A DNA stretch of 64,000 nt from a virus (taxonomy: Duplodnaviria > Heunggongvirae > Uroviricota > Caudoviricetes), in the IMG/VR virus record IMGVR_UViG_3300019487_000021, one strand, 5' to 3'. The notes under the pieces are model-generated. The model ran no database searches. It was not told where the DNA came from and was given only the letters and a program-made list of their open reading frames with translations. Both the position numbers and the translations under genes were made by a program. This document shows, piece by piece, positions 4,074 through 48,811 of this stretch. Position 1 is the first letter of the stretch; every line of letters starts with the position of its first letter.

Positions 4074-4733
4074 TTAGTCGTTTCGCTTCCAAGTTGTGAA
4101 ACGCAACTTGTCGTTCGTGTTGACTTTGTATGTATGTTCCTCAGTGAAGTGTTCCGTGACAAATGTGACAGGAAAGTGTTGATCGCAATTGTAACCGTCG
4201 TTGATGATTGTCATGTACACCGTGTTGGCGAGTGCCAATGCTTCACGGAATAGCCTTTCGCCTCCAATGACAAACACCGTTTCACGTTCATCAGCAACTA
4301 GATGTTTTTCGATTTCTGTCAGCGACTTGATCACCTTTGCGTTCGGAAGATCTGCGAGCGTTGAAGATACAACGAAGCATTCACGATCAGGCAGCACGCT
4401 GTCCTTGGCCTTCTCATCGAGAATCGTGTTAATCTCTTCGTAAGTGTGGCAACCCATCACACATTTGTGCCCCTTTGTATGATTTTGGAACCACTTCATG
4501 TCTTCTGGAAACCGCCACGGAATCGTTTTGTCCTTAGCGATTCCGCCGTATTGATCAACTGCCACAATCACAACAAAGTCACAATAACGAGAAGGCGCTC
4601 TGTCAATGTCCTTCTGCGTTTGAATCGCTTTACGACGGGCTTCTTGAAGCTTTCGTTTTGTGTCAAAGTGTTCATCGAGCAACTTTTGAAAGTAAGCACA
4701 TTCTTCTTCTGTCATCGGACGTTGCTGTCTCAT
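4074..4733 (-). CDS. folA: dihydrofolate reductase with N-terminal helical extension
   Basis: 'GIAKDKTIPWRFPEDMKWF', 'VMGCHTYE', 'VIGGERLF', 'CDQHFP'. Confidence 0.9.
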   Translation of the reverse strand: MRQQRPMTEEECAYFQKLLDEHFDTKRKLQEARRKAIQTQKDIDRAPSRYCDFVVIVAVDQYGGIAKDKTIPWRFPEDMKWFQNHTKGHKCVMGCHTYEEINTILDEKAKDSVLPDRECFVVSSTLADLPNAKVIKSLTEIEKHLVADERETVFVIGGERLFREALALANTVYMTIINDGYNCDQHFPVTFVTEHFTEEHTYKVNTNDKLRFTTWKRND

Positions 4734-30860: not shown

Positions 30861-31514
30861 ATGGATTGGGACAATAAAGAAATATTAGAACGAGCGATAT
30901 CTACAGCAACAAATCTAAAACAGGCGTTGGCAAATCTTGGCTATAAAAATGGTGGAATGACGCGGGAAAGATTGTTAACTGCAATCAAACAACACAAAAT
31001 TTCAACCGAACACTTTGCACCACATAAGCGACAACAGACAAGCGTGTTTGATAACACCGAGTTGTTGAAACAAGCTGTTCAACGATCAAAGTCGCGCGCA
31101 GAAGTTGTTCGGCGAATGGGTATGAGCGTTTCAGGAGCATCATACAAAATTCTTCAAGCACGATTATTTAAACATAACATTTCGACTGATCATTTTGATC
31201 CGTACAGTGCTGGTTATGAAAGGAAACGATTGAGCAAACGCTTGCGAAAAATAGCGTTGAAGGATATTCTTACCAAAAACTCAACGTATGATCGAAAAGA
31301 TCTGAAAAAGCGTCTCGTTGAAGAATGTAGACTTGATTATAAGTGTGCAAAGTGCGAAAATGGTGGTATATGGCAGGGAGAAACGTTAACTTTGCAGCTT
31401 GAACACAAAAATGGTGTGAATAATGACAATCGTCTGCAAAATTTGGAATTTCTTTGTCCAAACTGTCATTCACAGACAGCAACATATGCTGGACGAAACA
31501 GCAAAAAACATTGA
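30861..31514 (+). CDS. free-standing HNH endonuclease
   Basis: 'CAKC...LQLEHKNGVNNDNRLQNLEFLCPNCHSQT'; own TATAAATA at 30836. Confidence 0.9.
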   Translation: MDWDNKEILERAISTATNLKQALANLGYKNGGMTRERLLTAIKQHKISTEHFAPHKRQQTSVFDNTELLKQAVQRSKSRAEVVRRMGMSVSGASYKILQARLFKHNISTDHFDPYSAGYERKRLSKRLRKIALKDILTKNSTYDRKDLKKRLVEECRLDYKCAKCENGGIWQGETLTLQLEHKNGVNNDNRLQNLEFLCPNCHSQTATYAGRNSKKH

Positions 31515-31586
31515 ACGGTTGGATTTCTGGAGAGATCCTCGGCCCTTCAAGCCGAAGAGACGGGTTCGATTCCCGTACCGTTCACA
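31513..31586 (+). tRNA. trnE: tRNA-Glu(TTC)
   Basis: TCGGC-CCTTCAA-GCCGA. Confidence 0.8.
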
Positions 31587-31658
31587 GCTGTTTTGGTGAA
31601 ATAGCTCGCCATTACGGAAGGTTGAAACACCGGATTCGAATCCGGTTGGGAACGCCAC

Positions 31659-31749
31659 GGAAGGTATTGTTCCGGCGAACAGGCTTGCCTTGAAAACAAG
31701 TGAACAGCGGTGAAGAACTGCTGGGGGATCGACACCTCTACCTTCCGCT
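31659..31749 (+). tRNA. trnS: tRNA-Ser(TGA)
   Basis: CT-TGA-AA loop, long variable arm. Confidence 0.75.
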
Positions 31750-31751
31750 GA

Positions 31752-31858
31752 AGCTTGTTGCGTAGTACAACGGTTACTTCATTGGTTGAAAATCTGACTA
31801 CAAATCAGACATAGCTGGTTCAAATCCAGCGTCTTCCGTGTACACAATAACTCAAGCT
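31752..31858 (+). ncRNA. dispersed element copy 3: end-paired RNA enclosing tRNA-like arms
   Basis: AGCTTG/CAAGCT and GTAC-A-ACGG/CCGT-GTAC pairings enclose TCTGA/TCAGA and GCTGG-TTCAAAT-CCAGC arms. Confidence 0.55.
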
Positions 31859-31862
31859 CTTT

Positions 31863-31926
31863 GTACAGGTAGCTCAGTTGGTAGAGCAGCGTGCGTGTCG
31901 GTGGTTCAATTCCACCCCTGTACACA
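31863..31926 (+). pseudogene. tRNA-like RNA lacking the anticodon arm
   Basis: GTACAGG/CCTGTAC acceptor, canonical D and T arms. Confidence 0.65.
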
Positions 31927-37701: not shown

Positions 37702-37952
37702 GCACACGTGCCAGAGAGGCTAATGGAGCTGCCTGCAAAGCGTATTTCAGATTTTGCAATATTACGAGAAGCAGAAAAGTGTATTCCAGTTTGTGCTAAT
37801 TGTCATCGTAAAATACACAAGTATGGGTTGGAAAATGTGAGAAATGCACTAGTGGCAGAAAGATAATGCATTCGCCTGCAAAGCGAAATTGTGCTGGTTC
37901 AAGTCCAGTCTAGTGCTCCTAATGTAGGGTTCGAATCCCTCCGTGTGCTTCA
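37702..37952 (+). pseudogene. split tRNA-Cys(GCA): 5' part 37702-37742, 3' part 37921-37952, with HNH remnant between
   Basis: GCACACG pairs CGTGTGC; intervening 'CIPVCANCHRKIH'. Confidence 0.7.
37846..37919 (+). tRNA. trnC: tRNA-Cys(GCA)
   Basis: TTCGC-CTGCAAA-GCGAA; GCACTAG/CTAGTGC. Confidence 0.9.
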
Positions 37953-38321: not shown

Positions 38322-38355
38322 GCGGGATTGGCCCATTGGCTGGGTTCTAGCCTTC
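38322..38355 (+). pseudogene. 5' half of tRNA-Gly broken in the anticodon
   Basis: GCGGGAT...CTAGC-CT-TC then unrelated sequence. Confidence 0.55.
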
Positions 38356-38422
38356 ACCAAGTTCTGGTTTAGCAGTCAATACTAACGGTTGTGTTAAATC
38401 TTGGGCAAAAGCACTAACGGAA

Positions 38423-38623
38423 ATGATGAGACTTGCAATGAATTTAAAGACGTCCGGTTCGAACGCTCGTAAAACCGATACGAGGCCGTTTAGTGAAGAG
38501 ATTGATCGGTTGTTTGTGTTAGCAGAAGACGGGACCTGTTGGTGCATCCCAACAGCAGAGTTCAAGGCACGGCATGCACTTACTTTGAATGAAGCTTGGG
38601 ATCCTTATAAGGTTAAAGTTTAA
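38423..38623 (+). pseudogene. C-terminal remnant of PD-(D/E)XK-type homing endonuclease
   Basis: 'NLKTSG', 'IDRLFVLAEDG.CWCIP', 'DPYKV'. Confidence 0.5.
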
Positions 38624-38626
38624 CCT

Positions 38627-38701
38627 GCGGGTGTCGTATAGTGGCTATTATCTCTGACTTCCAATCAGAGGAGGAGGGTTCGAATCCCTCTACCCGCTCC
38701 A
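38627..38701 (+). tRNA. trnG: tRNA-Gly(TCC)
   Basis: TCTGA-CTTCCAA-TCAGA, CCA. Confidence 0.9.
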
Positions 38702-38734: not shown

Positions 38735-39595
38735 ATGAAGTTAATACATGTCCGTGAATCGCTTGAGGCGATTGAACGGCAGCAACGTGCGATTGAACAT
38801 CGAAAGAAGCACATTGAGGGTCAAATCGATGATATCTTCCTCACCGTGGCACCGGGACTGGCCATCAGACCGGGACTGGCCATCAGCCCCTGGATCTCGA
38901 CGTCGCTCTCCACGCCAGATGATTTGGTTTTTGGAGGCAGGCATGGTGTGATCATCATCAATAAACGGACGCATCCAGATCTTGCAGCTCGTCTCGAAAA
39001 ATTAACAACCGAGTATAAGACGGTTGCAAACCGTTTGAAGGCTGTAAAAGCAGCGTACATTGATGCCAAGGTGAACCTCAATTCGCAGCAGACTCGAGAA
39101 GCAAAGGCCCAGGTGCGTGGGAAACCAATAACTGCTTCACAAATTGCGCCGGAACAAGTTCCGACACGAATTCAGTTTGACTATATCGTTAAAGATGTTC
39201 GAGGCCCTAAAGTTAGTTACACAGCTCGGCAAGGTACATTTGTTAATCCGTACTTCGAAAATACGGAGGGACAGTACGCTGGTGATCCAGAGTCGTATCC
39301 GTGGTGGGAAAAAGATGCTGTGTACTATAATCGTTTCAAATCCATGCTTGCAAAGCATGGATTGAAGTTTGATGTTGTTTATGCTTCAAATCCAAATCTA
39401 ACAAAGCGTCCAAATTTTATAGCAGTGGCACAAACAAAGCGCGGGAACATTGTTTGGTATCGAAGAAATAGCACTTTCGCTAGTGCATCGTACATGCAAA
39501 TGCCGAACATGGGGGGAGAGGGTTGGTATGTTGCTGATACAGCATTCAGTTACTTAGGTAAAAAACTAGATGAGTTAGCAAAGCGGCTAAAGTAA
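38735..39595 (+). CDS. hypothetical protein, paralog of 35576-36304
   Basis: 'NPYFENTEGQYAGDPESYPW', 'GNIVWYRR'. Confidence 0.7.
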   Translation: MKLIHVRESLEAIERQQRAIEHRKKHIEGQIDDIFLTVAPGLAIRPGLAISPWISTSLSTPDDLVFGGRHGVIIINKRTHPDLAARLEKLTTEYKTVANRLKAVKAAYIDAKVNLNSQQTREAKAQVRGKPITASQIAPEQVPTRIQFDYIVKDVRGPKVSYTARQGTFVNPYFENTEGQYAGDPESYPWWEKDAVYYNRFKSMLAKHGLKFDVVYASNPNLTKRPNFIAVAQTKRGNIVWYRRNSTFASASYMQMPNMGGEGWYVADTAFSYLGKKLDELAKRLK

Positions 39596-39601
39596 ACACA
39601 T

Positions 39602-39675
39602 GACGTGGTAACAGAGTGGCTATGTGACACCCTGCAAAGGTCGTCAAGGTAGGTTCGATTCCTACACACGTCTCA
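39602..39675 (+). tRNA. trnC: tRNA-Cys(GCA)
   Basis: CT-GCA-AA loop; GACGTG/CACGTC acceptor. Confidence 0.75.
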
Positions 39676-39692
39676 CAGAAGGATTTTTCATC

Positions 39693-40169
39693 ATGAAGCA
39701 CTTGAATCGTGACGGGATGTCTGTCGACTATCTCGACGGATATGGTACGATTGTTTACGATCCGTACCGAGGCGATATGAAGAATCGCACTAAGTGGTGG
39801 TGTGTTGTTGACGTTGATAAAGAAATCACACGGTATTACCGTTGGTGGCTTCAACGCGAAAAGCACATTATTCTTCACAAGCCAGCTTGGGATGCACACA
39901 TCTCGGTTATCCGAGGCGAACATGCCTGTGCTCAGCATCCCGAACTTTGGAAGAAATATCAGGGAAAAAAAGTCAATTTCCGATACGAACACGGTAATCT
40001 TCGTGCAGCAGACGATCCAGACGGTGGATTTTTCTATTGGATCGATGTAGACTGCGCTATGTTGAACCAAATCCGTGCAGAGTTTGGGTTGCCGCGTGGT
40101 TGGCGGTTTCACATCACGATTGGTCGCACCTACGAGTATGAAGCTCGTGTGCCCAAAACAAGAAAATAG
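39693..40169 (+). CDS. 2H phosphoesterase-like protein
   Basis: Two Hx(S/T) motifs: 'AHISV' and 'FHITIG'. Confidence 0.6.
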   Translation: MKHLNRDGMSVDYLDGYGTIVYDPYRGDMKNRTKWWCVVDVDKEITRYYRWWLQREKHIILHKPAWDAHISVIRGEHACAQHPELWKKYQGKKVNFRYEHGNLRAADDPDGGFFYWIDVDCAMLNQIRAEFGLPRGWRFHITIGRTYEYEARVPKTRK

Positions 40170-40240
40170 CCCCGTGGTGTAATGGCAGCATACCGGTCTC
40201 CAAAACCGTTGGTTGCGGTTCGAGTCCGTACGGGGCTGCA
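40168..40240 (+). tRNA. trnW: tRNA-Trp(CCA)
   Basis: CGGT-CTCCAAA-ACCG. Confidence 0.9.
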
Positions 40241-40251
40241 GAGGAGATAAC

Positions 40252-40476
40252 ATGGTAGACATTTTCTTCGCGAATGTGTGGAGAACGAAACCAGTAGAAG
40301 AAGTTCCTGAGATTCAGCTGAAATCATCGAGCGTGATGGAGCTTCCTGACGGATCTCGCCACTTCGTCGGATATAAGATAACAAGGCTCTCACCAAGAGA
40401 GGAAGCGTTTGTTCTCGGTAAGGACTATGAAGAAGCACCAAAGGAAGAACCCTTTATTATGGTGAAGACAATATGA
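40252..40476 (+). CDS. hypothetical protein
   Basis: GAGGAG SD; 'DGSRHFVG'. Confidence 0.6.
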   Translation: MVDIFFANVWRTKPVEEVPEIQLKSSSVMELPDGSRHFVGYKITRLSPREEAFVLGKDYEEAPKEEPFIMVKTI

Positions 40477-40898
40477 ACGATATTCAACAAATGTGTCTTG
40501 ATCACTTTAACGAGCCAGTACTCCTGAGCTTTGAGCTTGCTCGCTTGATAGGCTATGCCGAAGACGCCGATGACTGTTATTTGATTGTCAAGTATCCAAG
40601 AAAAGGCGTTGTATGGCATACAGCTGTTGGTGGATATATATTTCTTGATAAATTAAAAGGACAAGGTGCTGTGGTACCGTCATGCCCTTCTTACGAAGGT
40701 GAAGTGTGGGATGATTTTTACCGTTTGGATAATTTGTTAGAAATAACCGGTGTCACAAAGGAAAAAGAATTTATCGTAGATATAAGACCGCATCAAGTAT
40801 ATACGAAAATATCGAGGGAGTTTGGCGCAGCGGTAGCGCAAGATCCTTACAAGATCGAGGTCGTAGGTTCGATCCCTACAGCTCCTACCATGGATTGA
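40473..40898 (+). CDS. hypothetical protein ending inside tRNA-Val
   Basis: 141-aa ORF. Confidence 0.6.
   Translation: MNDIQQMCLDHFNEPVLLSFELARLIGYAEDADDCYLIVKYPRKGVVWHTAVGGYIFLDKLKGQGAVVPSCPSYEGEVWDDFYRLDNLLEITGVTKEKEFIVDIRPHQVYTKISREFGAAVAQDPYKIEVVGSIPTAPTMD
40816..40890 (+). tRNA. trnV: tRNA-Val(TAC)
   Basis: GATC-CTTACAA-GATC, CCA. Confidence 0.9.
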
Positions 40899-40902
40899 AA
40901 AG

Positions 40903-41127
40903 ATGAGCAAAGATCAAGAATTGATACCAAACTTTCTCAGTGTGTTTGAACACAAACTGGAACGTTTGAAGAAACAGATCAAGACCGAACTTGCGAAGCC
41001 AAAACGCGAGCGGCATCGTGCTCAACTGAAAGACATGTTGAACAATGCAAAGACATTGAAACATGCTGTGCACAAAGTGAGGAAGCAACAAACAAAACTC
41101 TGCCCGCATTGTGGGAGGGAGATTTGA
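40903..41127 (+). CDS. hypothetical protein with C-terminal CPHCG
   Basis: 74 aa; frameshifted diverged copy at about 41379-41500. Confidence 0.7.
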   Translation: MSKDQELIPNFLSVFEHKLERLKKQIKTELAKPKRERHRAQLKDMLNNAKTLKHAVHKVRKQQTKLCPHCGREI

Positions 41128-41286
41128 GACGGGAGTATGGTGTAATCGGTAGATGCGCGAGCCTGGTGATCTGTCGAGAAGCTTGGATACGAGTTTGGCG
41201 AGCTGTCGGAAAAGAAATATGAACAGTTTCGCAAGAAGTTGGTGAAGGAAATACAAAAGATTATGGGTGGTTAGCTCAGCGGTAGA

Positions 41287-41361
41287 GGGAGCTTAGCTCA
41301 GCGGTAGAGCAACTCGTTTCACCGAGAAGGTCGTAGGTTTCAATCCCTACAGCTCCTACCA
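41287..41361 (+). pseudogene. degenerate tRNA-Val copy (6-nt anticodon loop)
   Basis: 3' end nearly identical to tRNA-Val 40816-40890. Confidence 0.6.
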
Positions 41362-41506
41362 ACCATATGGGGATTTTGTGACTAAACCAATTCCGAATTT
41401 TCTTAACATTTTTGAGGGAAAATCACTGCTCTCAAGAAGCAAATCGAAAAAGAGTTGGATAAGCCAAAGAAAGATCACTCAAAGTCGATTTTAAATAAAT
41501 ACCAAA

Positions 41507-42034
41507 ATGCATCGAACTATAACGAAAGAACAGATTATCGAAGCCGTAAGGACTTCTGCTTCCATGCAGGAGGCTGCTAGACAGCTTGATTTACCGTATC
41601 AAACGTTTCGGTATCGTGCAACACAACTTCGTGTGTACAGACCAAGGCCAAATCCCACACGAATAGAGGGACTGAGCAACGCTCGAAAAGAATACCTGGA
41701 CCGTATCACGACACCGCTACAAGAGATTTTAACTGGTAAACACCCAACTTATCCAACACGCTCTCTTAAAGAACGATTGTTTAGGGAAGGACTGAAGAAA
41801 TCTCAGTGTGAGGAGTGTAAGATCGAAACTTGGAATGGTAAAAGATTGGTACTGGAGCTTGACCACGTGGACGGAAACAAGGAAAATCACAGATTAAGCA
41901 ACCTTAGGATATTGTGCCCAAACTGTCATTCGCAAACACCAACGTTTCGAAAAAGCAAAGGGGCAAAGAAACGGGTAATGAAACAATTACGGCCACGTGG
42001 GGGAATTGGTAGACCCGCTAGTCTTAGGAACTAG
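41507..42034 (+). CDS. free-standing HNH endonuclease
   Basis: 'CEECK...LELDHVDGNKENHRLSNLRILCPNCHSQT'. Confidence 0.9.
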   Translation: MHRTITKEQIIEAVRTSASMQEAARQLDLPYQTFRYRATQLRVYRPRPNPTRIEGLSNARKEYLDRITTPLQEILTGKHPTYPTRSLKERLFREGLKKSQCEECKIETWNGKRLVLELDHVDGNKENHRLSNLRILCPNCHSQTPTFRKSKGAKKRVMKQLRPRGGIGRPASLRN

Positions 42035-42073
42035 TGCTTTATGCGTGTAGGTTCGAGTCCTACCGTGGCCACA
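41991..42073 (+). tRNA. trnL: tRNA-Leu(TAG)
   Basis: CTAGT-CTTAGGA-ACTAG; overlaps HNH C-terminus. Confidence 0.9.
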
Positions 42074-42556
42074 CTGGAGATATGATAAGATGGTTTCGTC
42101 CAACGATACAACTTGCGAGCGTTCTATAATCTCGACGACGAGAATGTCGTGGTTGGTGGCAATCTTGAGCCAAATGAACAGGAGCATAGAAGCTCGTGTC
42201 GAGAGGCGTGTGGGTTCGAGTCCCTCTACTCCCACCAAAAAGGAGAGAAAAATGCATTCAGTATTACATATTGTGAAATGGGCTGTGATTGTTGCAGTTG
42301 TCGTCGCGGCATTGTGGCTAGGTCATGGTCTGTGGGAACAACTAACACACATGATGTAACAATGGCACGCGCATGTTGGCAGTGTTTACGACCAATCTAC
42401 GAGTGCATGGGTGCTGTTAGCGCTGGTGATTTGCTGCGATTTATGCGTGGAGAAATCCCAGGTGCGTTAGTACGCGAAACATGTGGGCATTGTGTTATGC
42501 GGAACATACTGTTAGACATTCAAGTCTATCCAAGTACTCCTTTATTGGAGTATAAG

Positions 42557-42649
42557 GGAAAGAGTGGCTGAGTCCGGCTTAAGGCACTACGTTGGAAGCG
42601 TAGCGAGCGGGTAACTGCTCCATGGGTTCGAATCCCATCTCTTCCGCCA
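42557..42649 (+). tRNA. trnS: tRNA-Ser(GGA)
   Basis: CTACG-TTGGAAG-CGTAG, long variable arm, CCA. Confidence 0.85.
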
Positions 42650-42704
42650 AACGGGCATATATACGGTCGAGTACTCCCATCAAAGTGGAGTTAAAGGAGG
42701 TCGT

Positions 42705-43085
42705 ATGAAACATATCATTGCAACTCTCGCATTTGTCGCTGGACTGTTCGCTGCATCAGGCAGCTGGGCACAAAGCGAAAACCTTCCGAATGATGTTTGT
42801 AAATTCCGTGCAAACATTGCGTCACAAATCGTTGGCCAACACGTTGAGCATGGTGTGCCGCTTGAAGCACTCAAAGGCTCTTTCGCAGCCTGGATTGTAT
42901 CTGGTATGGCAGGAGCGAACGATTTGCTCCGAGCTCAGATGAAGGAGTGGTACACCACATGGACTGGCCCAGTGTTCGAGAAATGGTTTGGTGATGTGTA
43001 TGCAAAGTACGACTCGTATCAAGTTGCGCATGATGCAGAGCTAGCAGCGTGCCGAGCAAACAACAACGCACCGCCCGTTGACTAA
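42705..43085 (+). CDS. secreted hypothetical protein
   Basis: GGAGG SD; signal peptide 'MKHIIATLAFVAGLFAASGSWA'. Confidence 0.75.
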   Translation: MKHIIATLAFVAGLFAASGSWAQSENLPNDVCKFRANIASQIVGQHVEHGVPLEALKGSFAAWIVSGMAGANDLLRAQMKEWYTTWTGPVFEKWFGDVYAKYDSYQVAHDAELAACRANNNAPPVD

Positions 43086-43304
43086 GTCGCTCCAGCTCAG
43101 TAAGGTATTGGTTTGAGGATACGTGCCCGAATCCCTAGACTGGTTAAGACACGTATCCAATAGTCTGATCTTAGGCAACCGCAGAATGGAATGCAGAGAG
43201 TGAAAGCGCCTAAACGTTGATTTGCATTCTTGCCGCAAGGATTGGCGAACTGGAAGCCGTGTACGGGCTCAAAACCAGCGGGTGGGTGCAAAGCCTACAT
43301 TTTT

Positions 43305-43379
43305 GCCCTCGTAGTTCAGTGGATAGAACGCAACGCTACGAACGTTGAAGTCGGGAGTCCGATTCTCTCCGAGGGTACA
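43305..43379 (+). tRNA. trnR: tRNA-Arg(ACG)
   Basis: CAACG-CTACGAA-CGTTG. Confidence 0.85.
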
Positions 43380-43382
43380 TAT

Positions 43383-43457
43383 TCGCGATTAGTTTAGAGG
43401 CAAAACACTAGCGTGACATGCTAGAGACCGAAGGTCCGAGTCCTTCATCGCGAACCA
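43383..43457 (+). tRNA. trnV: tRNA-Val(GAC)
   Basis: CTAGC-GTGACAT-GCTAG, CCA. Confidence 0.8.
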
Positions 43458-43507
43458 ACTTCCCGCCATAAATATCTCCACAAAACAGCATTTTCCGTGG
43501 AGATGTC

Positions 43508-48135: not shown

Positions 48136-48222
48136 GGCCGCGTGGTGTAATCGGTAGATGCGCGAGTCTCAAAAATTCGTGTCCTTACGGGCGTGTGGGT
48201 TCGAATCCCACCTCGGCCACCA
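48136..48222 (+). tRNA. trnL: tRNA-Leu(CAA)
   Basis: CGAGT-CTCAAAA-ATTCG, CCA. Confidence 0.9.
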
Positions 48223-48727: not shown

Positions 48728-48811
48728 GCCCTCGTGGTGTAATCGGTAGATGCGGAAGGCTTAAACCCTTCTGCCGCAAGGCGTGCAGGTTCGAACCCTG
48801 TCGAGGGCACA
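48728..48811 (+). tRNA. trnL: tRNA-Leu(TAA)
   Basis: GAAGG-CTTAAAC-CCTTC. Confidence 0.9.

Follow-up and report, generated by a model that had tools for sequence, protein, structure and literature searches.

A phage tRNA-Leu(UAG) gene interrupted in its anticodon loop by an HNH homing-endonuclease gene and a second tRNA-Leu(UAG)

We analyzed a 64,000-nt stretch of DNA (hereafter, the window) that is a portion of the genome of an uncultured giant phage of the class Caudoviricetes (IMG/VR record IMGVR_UViG_3300019487_000021). Among the 34 tRNA genes called in the window by ARAGORN, we found a tRNA-Leu(UAG) locus in which the resident gene is split between nucleotides 33 and 34, in the anticodon loop, by a foreign insert of 1,022 bp (41165-42186; all features of the locus lie on the plus strand). 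The insert carries an intact gene for an HNH homing endonuclease, followed by a complete but strongly diverged tRNA-Leu(UAG). We read the locus as the footprint of a homing-endonuclease invasion of tRNA-Leu(UAG), to which, as a whole, we assign a probability of roughly 0.7; as part of this reading, we propose that the two halves of the resident gene are inert relics.

The split gene and its intact counterpart

The 5′ half of the resident gene (41131-41164, 34 nt) contains the 5′ strand of the acceptor stem, the D-arm, the 5′ strand of the anticodon stem, and C32, and ends with U33. The 3′ half (42187-42237, 51 nt) resumes with U34, A35, and G36 and continues through the 3′ strand of the anticodon stem, the variable arm, the T-arm, and the 3′ strand of the acceptor stem to the terminal ACCA. 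Rejoined without the gain or loss of a single nucleotide, the halves form an 85-nt gene, recognized by ARAGORN as tRNA-Leu(tag), with all 7 acceptor-stem pairs (7/7) and all 5 anticodon-stem pairs (5/5) in place, a CU-UAG-AA loop, a variable arm of 3 bp, and an encoded CCA. The complete pairing of the acceptor and anticodon stems excludes the possibility that the halves match by chance, and the same two halves were recovered in an unbiased scan for orphan T-arms with a complementary 5′ acceptor strand upstream. The clean rejoining, the ARAGORN call, and the independent scan thus confirm the split exactly at 33/34 that had been proposed in the first-pass annotation of the window. The annotation also held that the D-arm is common to the other tRNA-Leu genes of the phage, and this was borne out as well: a D-arm block of 24 nt (positions 8-31) is exactly the same in the rejoined gene and in tRNA-Leu(CAA) at 48136, and tRNA-Leu(UAA) at 48728 has 20 nt in common with the rejoined gene. 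Given the 24-nt block shared with the phage's own tRNA-Leu(CAA), the rejoined gene can be considered native to the phage.

An empty site is present in L106, a 17-kb contig of a related phage, which was reached via a homolog (71% identical) of the open reading frame (ORF) located upstream of tRNA-Val in the window. In the window, the broken gene is preceded by the resident tRNA-Val(UAC) (40816-40890; called by ARAGORN, Rfam score of 60 bits) and by a gene encoding a 74-aa protein, here denoted X (40903-41127), the stop codon of which lies 3 nt ahead of the broken tRNA, and is followed by a gene for a small membrane peptide of 35 aa, denoted Z (42252-42359). L106 displays the same order, namely, tRNA-Val(UAC) (4297-4371), a homolog of gene X (4388-4612), an intact tRNA-Leu(UAG) (4614-4698), and a homolog of peptide Z. 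The synteny extends to tRNA-Gly(UCC), a 2H-phosphoesterase gene, and tRNA-Trp, all located ahead of tRNA-Val, and, further along the array, to tRNA-Arg(ACG), tRNA-Val(GAC), tRNA-Leu(CAA), tRNA-Leu(UAA), and tRNA-Ser(UGA), although the order is not identical throughout, with the upstream ORF placed after tRNA-Leu(UAG) in L106. The 5′ half aligns to positions 4614-4647 of L106, and the 3′ half is 82% identical to positions 4648-4713; overall, the intact gene and the rejoined halves are 82.4% identical, with no gap at 33/34. Two of the differences are compensatory, at pairs 7-66 (A-T in the halves vs G-C in L106) and 29-41 (G-C vs T-A), and each of these pairs has one partner in each half and, thus, spans the split. 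The intact ortholog and the paired changes across the split indicate that the halves evolved as a unit, as a single gene, and were interrupted later. Nothing in L106 corresponds to the insert at the orthologous site, and the HNH gene found no match in the blastn and tblastx comparison of the window with L106; with X, the intact tRNA-Leu(UAG), and Z all present there, the HNH gene is optional at this site, as is characteristic of free-standing homing-endonuclease genes.

The split locus is not an assembly artifact, because the same structure, insert included, is found in 2 further strain contigs (352 kb and 154 kb) originating from 2 ENA samples, the assemblies of which are ERZ27251176 and ERZ27251177. 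Over 6.4 kb, the window and the 154-kb contig (L005) differ by just 2 single-nucleotide polymorphisms (SNPs), at 42075 and 42212, both of which fall within the 165 nt that constitute the tail of the insert and the dead 3′ half (42073-42237). The G/A polymorphism at 42212 disrupts T-stem pair 51-63 in the two other contigs (L005/L006), and, judging from the sequences, the resident halves appear to be drifting. The single T-stem mismatch of the rejoined gene in the window, U50:U64, was initially also read as decay of the halves; this reading was dropped, since the intact L106 ortholog has the same mismatch, which is therefore native.

An insert located in an anticodon loop could be an intron, or the two halves could be joined in trans, in which case mature tRNA-Leu(UAG) would still be produced from the resident gene. 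The position of the break, the occurrence of relatives of the HNH gene within group I introns of tRNA-Leu genes (see below), and the presence in the array of genes for RNA-repair-type proteins, such as the 2H phosphoesterase, are all compatible with this explanation, which we nevertheless regard as very improbable in view of the following observations. Rfam searches revealed no group I or group II intron in 39500-43500 (E up to 1), and the insert alone yielded no intron match, including RF00028, even at E 10, whereas RF00028 scores of 52-66 bits were obtained for relatives. A more specific nhmmer profile was built from 6 phage group I introns in tRNA-Leu genes, all containing or lying next to homologs of the HNH gene; it detected the positive controls (L094, E 1e-48; the two halves of the L049 intron, E 8e-18 and 5e-17) and found nothing in 27000-54000, the top match (E 1.1) lying outside the insert. 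The insert does follow U33 but ends in A rather than G, and it is located at 33/34 rather than at 34/35. Its noncoding space is divided among 3 separate stretches of 102-145 nt, and it contains 2 tRNA genes and a gene copy. Furthermore, the halves lie 1 kb apart on the same strand with recognizable foreign genes between them, and inspection by eye, with no dedicated search run, revealed beside them no complementary leaders of the kind that accompany Nanoarchaeum-type split tRNAs. Taken together, the empty site in L106 and the failure of both Rfam and the family profile to detect a ribozyme support insertion into a once-intact tRNA-Leu(UAG) gene, as originally suggested, as opposed to an intron. 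The long-intron mode of ARAGORN, which produced many chimeric calls in tRNA arrays, was used for clear cases of tRNA-Leu introns alone; one such chimeric call, in the window, fused tRNA-Val (5′ part) with tRNA-Leu (3′ half).

Contents and origin of the insert

According to the first-pass annotation, the insert holds a degenerate tRNA-Val, a frameshifted copy of the gene at 40903 (gene X), an intact HNH gene, and a diverged tRNA-Leu with the same anticodon as the broken gene, and each of these parts was verified. The insert begins with passenger DNA that includes the 3′ end of an ORF (41170-41274; 34 codons and the stop codon, the 5′ part being missing), with no counterpart in the window or in L106. 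Next comes a dead copy of tRNA-Val(UAC), denoted Val′ (41271-41361), in which a 16-nt stutter of the D-arm precedes a body whose anticodon loop has 6 nt and whose T-loop has 8 nt. ARAGORN reports Val′ as "tRNA-???," and its Rfam score is 38 bits vs 60 for the resident tRNA-Val. It is 78% to 80% identical to the resident gene (compared over 40814-40890) and 73% identical to tRNA-Val of L106, but the similarity is mosaic: the acceptor stem and T-arm are nearly identical to those of the resident gene, whereas the D-arm and anticodon arm resemble those of L106. Val′ is followed by X′ (41378-41506), a frameshifted and 3′-truncated copy of gene X, which matches the resident protein colinearly in 2 reading frames (BLASTP E values of 2e-5 and 3e-7; approximately 50% protein identity) up to the start of the HNH gene, where the similarity stops. 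At the nucleotide level, X′ is 80% identical to the L106 gene over 41 nt and has no blastn match to the resident gene X. Homologs of gene X (71 aa) are 52% to 55% identical to it, and the L106 homolog is 48% identical by tblastx; the former are found in nucleotide-metabolism contexts rather than in tRNA arrays and provided no further empty site.

The HNH gene (41507-42034) overlaps the inner tRNA-Leu(UAG) (41991-42072; called by ARAGORN, Rfam score of 59.2 bits), and the remaining 114 nt of the insert (42073-42186) are passenger DNA that carries the strain SNP at 42075. The inner tRNA-Leu is the sole tRNA with a UAG anticodon in the window and is only 64% identical to the rejoined resident gene, from which it differs in the acceptor stem, D-arm, and T-stem, as well as in having G37 vs A37. 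We consider the insert to be foreign because of this divergence of the inner tRNA, the approximately 50% protein identity of X′, and the match of X′ at the DNA level to gene X of L106 and not to the resident one; base composition, with a GC content of 44% in the insert vs 46%, is no marker of foreignness. Since X′ and Val′ best fit neither the resident nor the L106 copies throughout, the donor was probably a third lineage of the same phage group. A scan for promoters and terminators yielded nothing above the expectation from shuffled sequences. The left end of the insert (41172-41183) and the start of the 3′ half (42188-42205) have in common the 8-mer TGTCGAGA and the 7-mer AGAAGCT, in swapped order, which may represent a microhomology used in repair or a coincidence (the chance being roughly 1% to 2%, by our estimate).

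Related DNA could also have landed in the tRNA gene through illegitimate recombination or duplication in which the nuclease had no part, or the locus could have arisen by internal amplification of the type associated with the T4 and T6 nuclease SegB, followed by divergence. Phage tRNA arrays are prone to recombination, and tRNA fragments abound in the window; amplification of tRNA segments driven by a nuclease has been documented for T6 (PMC13096335); and the insert repeats the local order of Val, X, and Leu. However, the copies are neither tandem nor near-identical, being nested and as divergent as 78% to 80% for tRNA-Val and approximately 50% for X, while the halves are almost undecayed, which indicates that divergence of the copies preceded the split rather than following an internal duplication. 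In addition, the break and the intron site of relatives of the nuclease encoded by the insert itself are at most one nucleotide apart, and the nested layout recurs with the same HNH family, as described below. We therefore rate an origin independent of the nuclease as improbable, if less so than splicing.

The HNH family and the recurrence of nested tRNA genes

The product of the HNH gene is full length and matches PHROG 10822 with an E value of 4.8e-29, while its score against the Pfam HNH profile (20.1 bits) is just below the cut-off of 21.4 bits. It possesses the beta-beta-alpha-metal motif, with the catalytic His, Asn, and His residues, and 2 CxxC zinc pairs; residues C101, C104, H120, N132, C137, C140, and H141 are invariant in an alignment of 28 sequences that includes this protein. 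Searches of solved structures and of NCBIfam returned no informative relative, whereas a large protein collection contained 1,451 homologs, and 569 IMG/VR stretches encode relatives. The homology within the family ends near 41965, and the last 14 codons and the stop codon are situated inside the next tRNA. A similar overlap is observed for the ORF at 40473-40898 (141 codons), which runs through tRNA-Val; because its homologs are just about 111 to 117 aa long, the last 28 or so codons of this ORF correspond to tRNA sequence. Several genes of the array, including this ORF and the HNH ORFs, seem to lack a stop codon of their own ahead of the next tRNA.

Seven of the closest homologs were looked up, and 5 of these are on contigs that reach past the end of the gene. 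All 5 with a readable 3′ flank (5/5) abut or overlap a tRNA-Leu gene, which has the UAG anticodon in 4 cases and UAA in one. The tRNA-Leu(UAG) gene starts 4 nt past the HNH stop codon for P0004 (58% identity; L007) and 8 nt past the HNH gene for P0008 (53%; L009), and overlaps the HNH gene by its last 15 nt for P0003 (54%; L018) and by 36 nt for P0011 (49%; L021), whereas tRNA-Leu(UAA) lies 11 nt past the gene for P0005 (53%; L019). P0010 (50%; L014) is encoded inside a tRNA-Leu intron, and P0014 (48%; L023 and L024) follows tRNA-Leu(UAA) with no tRNA downstream. Beside the HNH-tRNA-Leu units of L019 (approximately 800-950) and L018 (1139-1338), there are long tRNA-like elements, the ends of which are paired and the interior of which holds an insert; from their sequence, these may be further interrupted tRNAs.

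The association holds across the family. Of 87 loci, 84 contain tRNA genes, and in 43 a tRNA starts at the HNH stop codon; Leu accounts for 27 of these 43 abutting tRNAs vs 17.5% of all tRNAs in the loci. In 21 further loci of the 87, a tRNA-Leu gene is located within 130 nt upstream of the HNH gene. In 4 loci, U34 and A35 of tRNA-Leu(UAA) are separated by a group I intron in which the HNH gene resides (L035, 2397-3179; L040, 2383-3167; L014, 2900-3681; L049, 2304-3088), and in 3 others the HNH gene lies directly upstream of a tRNA-Leu(UAA) that has an ORF-less intron at the same site (L045, 2943-3239; L051, 2941-3228; L053, 2940-3234); the Rfam scores of these 7 introns range from 32 to 66 bits. 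The HNH genes of the latter 3 loci had been candidates for intron-encoded nucleases, an assignment rejected upon alignment, which placed the gene upstream of the entire tRNA, intron included. L094 and L102 (approximately 2184-2454) likewise have a group I intron at U34/A35 of a phage tRNA-Leu(UAA). Some of the introns at this site encode an HNH, whereas others have no ORF and the HNH gene is located just upstream or downstream of the tRNA. L034 and L045 are 85% identical across the HNH gene and its flanks and encode the same HNH, but their tRNA-Leu(UAA) alleles are distinct, only one having the 212-nt intron and the stems showing many paired changes. Judging by these gene positions, the family most likely homes on the anticodon-loop region of tRNA-Leu, and the break in the window at 33/34 is one nucleotide from the intron site of the family at 34/35.

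In a quick phylogenetic tree, the HNH of the window groups (SH-aLRT support of 89) with the 4 homologs abutting tRNA-Leu(UAG), the L019 homolog (UAA), and the tRNA-less L032, whereas other subclades are associated with tRNA-Leu(UAA), with tRNA-Tyr or tRNA-Glu, or with tRNA-Ser. Among the members of the family in L026, L034, L045, and L050, a conserved TATAAATAG motif resembling T4-type late promoters is found 20-35 nt ahead of the HNH start; the window has only a loose match, TAAATAAATA, ahead of 41507. GOLLD RNA is also encoded in the phage tRNA arrays of L035 (4143-4569; Rfam score of 239 bits) and L045 (606-1069; 206 bits).

Split and replacement pairs were found in other phage tRNA arrays, where the first-pass annotation had recommended searching for them. 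In 3 IMG/VR loci on unrelated phage contigs, fragments of an outer tRNA gene flank an HNH gene and a complete tRNA-Leu(UAA): L044 retains a 5′ fragment of about 28 nt and a 3′ fragment consisting of the T-arm and acceptor strand; L026 retains 16 nt and 28 nt, respectively; and L050, the weaker case, about 10 nt and 28 nt. A comparable nest exists in the window itself around tRNA-Cys (37702-37952). Its outer 5′ part runs from 37702 through the anticodon loop; next come approximately 35 3′-terminal codons of a different HNH, the frame of which runs into a complete tRNA-Cys (37846-37919), and then the outer T-arm and 3′ acceptor strand, a few outer nucleotides having been lost. This confirms the tRNA-Cys parallel drawn previously, whereas the tRNA-Gly and tRNA-Glu parallels hold only in part. 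The tRNA-Gly case (38322-38701) is a partial nest, with a tRNA-Gly-like 5′ fragment (38322 to about 38355), some 270 nt that read as the C-terminal portion of a protein, and a complete tRNA-Gly(UCC), in which no 3′ fragment was seen. For tRNA-Glu(UUC) (31513-31585), just the abutment is evident: a 217-aa HNH paralog (30861-31514; 33% identical) ends on the first base of the tRNA. Within 350 nt past this tRNA, there are tRNA-like relics, namely, a T-arm at 31630, an 89-nt element with paired acceptor strands (31659-31747), and an orphan T-arm at 31814, and a further tRNA-like element of 61 nt (31863-31923) has a 7-bp acceptor stem, a D-arm, and a T-arm but no anticodon arm.

The nests fall into at least 3 HNH subclades of the quick tree. 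In the tRNA-Cys, L044, L026, and L050 nests, the middle of the outer gene is lost, and the tRNA-Leu of the window alone keeps both halves complete; with the empty site in a relative, it is the cleanest example of the layout. From these sequences, the series looks like an invasion followed by erosion of the outer pieces, ending in the common state of an HNH gene abutting a tRNA.

A proposed course of the invasion and its implications

We propose that the ancestral array contained the run of tRNA-Val, gene X, tRNA-Leu(UAG), and peptide Z that is kept in L106. During a mixed infection, an HNH endonuclease of the tRNA-Leu-homing family would have nicked or cut the resident gene in the anticodon loop, and repair of the break would have copied or captured about 1 kb of DNA belonging to a third, related phage, where the HNH gene already stood directly in front of its own tRNA-Leu(UAG). 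The donor piece would have entered whole between U33 and U34, because the Val/X/Leu run was too diverged for homologous replacement (78% to 80% identity for tRNA-Val and approximately 50% for X). The imported tRNA-Leu(UAG) would then supply the decoding lost with the resident gene, leaving the HNH gene and the imported tRNA as the working parts of the insert, and the interrupted site would no longer be a target. Survivors would be expected to carry a spare tRNA, because only events that bring in an intact tRNA-Leu(UAG) would leave the reading of CUA and CUG unchanged. A number of HNH homing enzymes from phages act as nickases. Given the exact junction, template switching after a nick is no less plausible than end joining after a double-strand break.

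The overlap of the HNH gene with the inner tRNA may also bear on expression. The HNH reading frame reaches its stop codon 44 nt into the tRNA, so that 5′ cleavage by RNase P would remove the last codons and the stop codon from the mRNA, and such processing might keep the level of the nuclease low. By analogy, cleavage between the last codon and the stop codon of T4 segB during maturation of tRNA-Arg has been proposed to lower its expression, and the same proposal has been made for the endonucleases of the T5 tRNA region (PMC2330249).

Several observations weigh against this course of events. The target site of the HNH is deduced solely from the positions of its relatives, and the intron-borne relatives are located at 34/35 of UAA tRNAs, whereas in the window a UAG tRNA is broken at 33/34. 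Random end joining seldom yields so perfectly clean a junction, and the other nests (L044, L026, L050, and tRNA-Cys) have lost part of the outer tRNA. The near-identity of the T-arm and acceptor end of Val′ to those of the resident tRNA-Val might reflect later gene conversion or a closer origin of the insert. L106 is a distant relative, with 71% protein identity in a neighboring ORF, and neither the donor genome nor a near-identical strain free of the insert was found in GenBank phages, IMG/VR, or JGI metagenomes: GenBank phages searched with the locus gave generic tRNA matches alone; IMG/VR gave 4 matches to the rejoined anticodon arm, all in unrelated phages, and no relative when searched with the upstream ORF; and scans of JGI metagenomes for the intact allele and for the 5′ half returned zero matches each.

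The first-pass annotation had envisaged a recurrent mobile unit, composed of an endonuclease that targets a tRNA gene and a cleavage-resistant replacement. The part of this proposal that stood is the independent recurrence of a nested layout with a spare tRNA; the insert, however, is not a tidy cassette but a 1-kb chunk with dead passengers, and its content (the ORF tail, Val′, and X′) fits imprecise repair or capture better than a discrete element with defined ends. Alternatively, the whole insert would still be mobile, homing without an intron into intact tRNA-Leu(UAG) alleles of co-infecting relatives, with the halves serving as homology arms in the manner of exons and the spare tRNA taking the place of the ribozyme. 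The clean junction with both halves complete, the intact HNH gene, the occurrence of the layout in several subclades beside true intron forms of the same family, and the existence of relatives with an intact target all speak for such an element. Nevertheless, we regard it as unlikely, considering the dead passenger DNA, the strain SNP at 42212 that is already degrading one half, and the erosion of the outer fragments in other nests to 9-28 nt, too short for homology arms; moreover, no second genome with the same insert was found in IMG/VR, JGI metagenomes, or among the HNH homologs.

Among known systems, the established precedent is SegB of T4 and T6, a free-standing GIY-YIG endonuclease encoded in the tRNA cluster, which cuts tRNA genes and drags the region along and which is enriched next to tRNAs in 296 genomes (PMC2330249; PMC13096335); it was fairly invoked in the original annotation as a model for the nuclease-driven spread of tRNA regions. 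The likeness extends to a nuclease gene located among phage tRNA genes, an ORF ending at the 5′ end of a tRNA, a wide association with tRNAs, cleavage inside the tRNA genes of relatives with the dragging of neighboring tRNA genes, and the trimming of the mRNA by tRNA processing. Unlike the HNH of the window, SegB belongs to another nuclease superfamily, recognizes a T-arm motif, and replaces the region by homologous recombination, and no broken target around the nuclease and a spare tRNA has been reported for it.

In collaborative homing, as outlined in PMC6083498 for F-CphI of cyanophage S-PM2, encoded next to a psbA gene with an intron (Zeng et al. 2009), the target of a free-standing nuclease is the intron site of the neighboring gene, and the interruption by the intron confers immunity on the site; L045, L051, and L053 show this layout with the HNH family and tRNA-Leu. 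In the window, by contrast, the site is interrupted by the segment carrying the nuclease and tRNA genes itself, there is no splicing, and a second gene copy would provide the rescue. The anticodon region is also the target of I-SspI, found in a cyanobacterial tRNA-fMet intron (Bonocora and Shub 2001, as listed in PMC3984707), and the anticodon loop is the homing site of group I introns of tRNA-Leu(UAA), including the phage introns that encode relatives of the HNH; the insert of the window differs from these introns in having no ribozyme, in being located one nucleotide upstream, and in residing in a UAG tRNA. As in the window, the HNH genes for F-TflI/II/IV of T5 lie between phage tRNA genes (Akulenko et al. 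2004), and no split target with a spare copy is described for them where they are cited in PMC2330249. Fractured genes offer a parallel among protein-coding genes, in that a free-standing nuclease gene lies inside its target gene and the break is compensated, but there the halves are functional through protein trans-splicing by a split intein (PMC2677866), whereas the window has dead halves and a complete additional copy. Within the literature covered, in which subscription journals are represented to a limited extent, we found no paper on a broken tRNA gene surrounding a nuclease gene and a spare tRNA and none on HNH genes in or beside phage tRNA-Leu introns.

Known homing endonucleases are either encoded within self-splicing introns and inteins or specified by free-standing genes next to the target. 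An HNH gene located inside its target without a splicing device, the damage being offset by an imported copy of the target, would represent a third route by which such genes are tolerated. Within a single family, HNH genes are now found within a tRNA-Leu intron, next to a tRNA-Leu with an intron, next to one without, and nested in a broken tRNA-Leu, a series that allows one to ask how free-standing and intron-borne nucleases interconvert. Phage tRNAs counter host defenses that cut tRNAs (PMC10264068, PMC13096335). Tentatively, and as less likely than not, the nest could be viewed as a working intron-less "cut-and-replace" homing element, in which the HNH would nick the anticodon loop, the halves would act as homology arms, and the spare tRNA would escape cleavage, trim the nuclease mRNA, and alter the target presented to anticodon nucleases. 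The invasion that we propose provides a concrete mechanism by which tRNA arrays of large phages could turn over rapidly, undergo duplication, and accumulate pseudogenes, as is observed, and, if the more tentative view is true, cut-and-replace homing would be a general route by which phage tRNA repertoires turn over.

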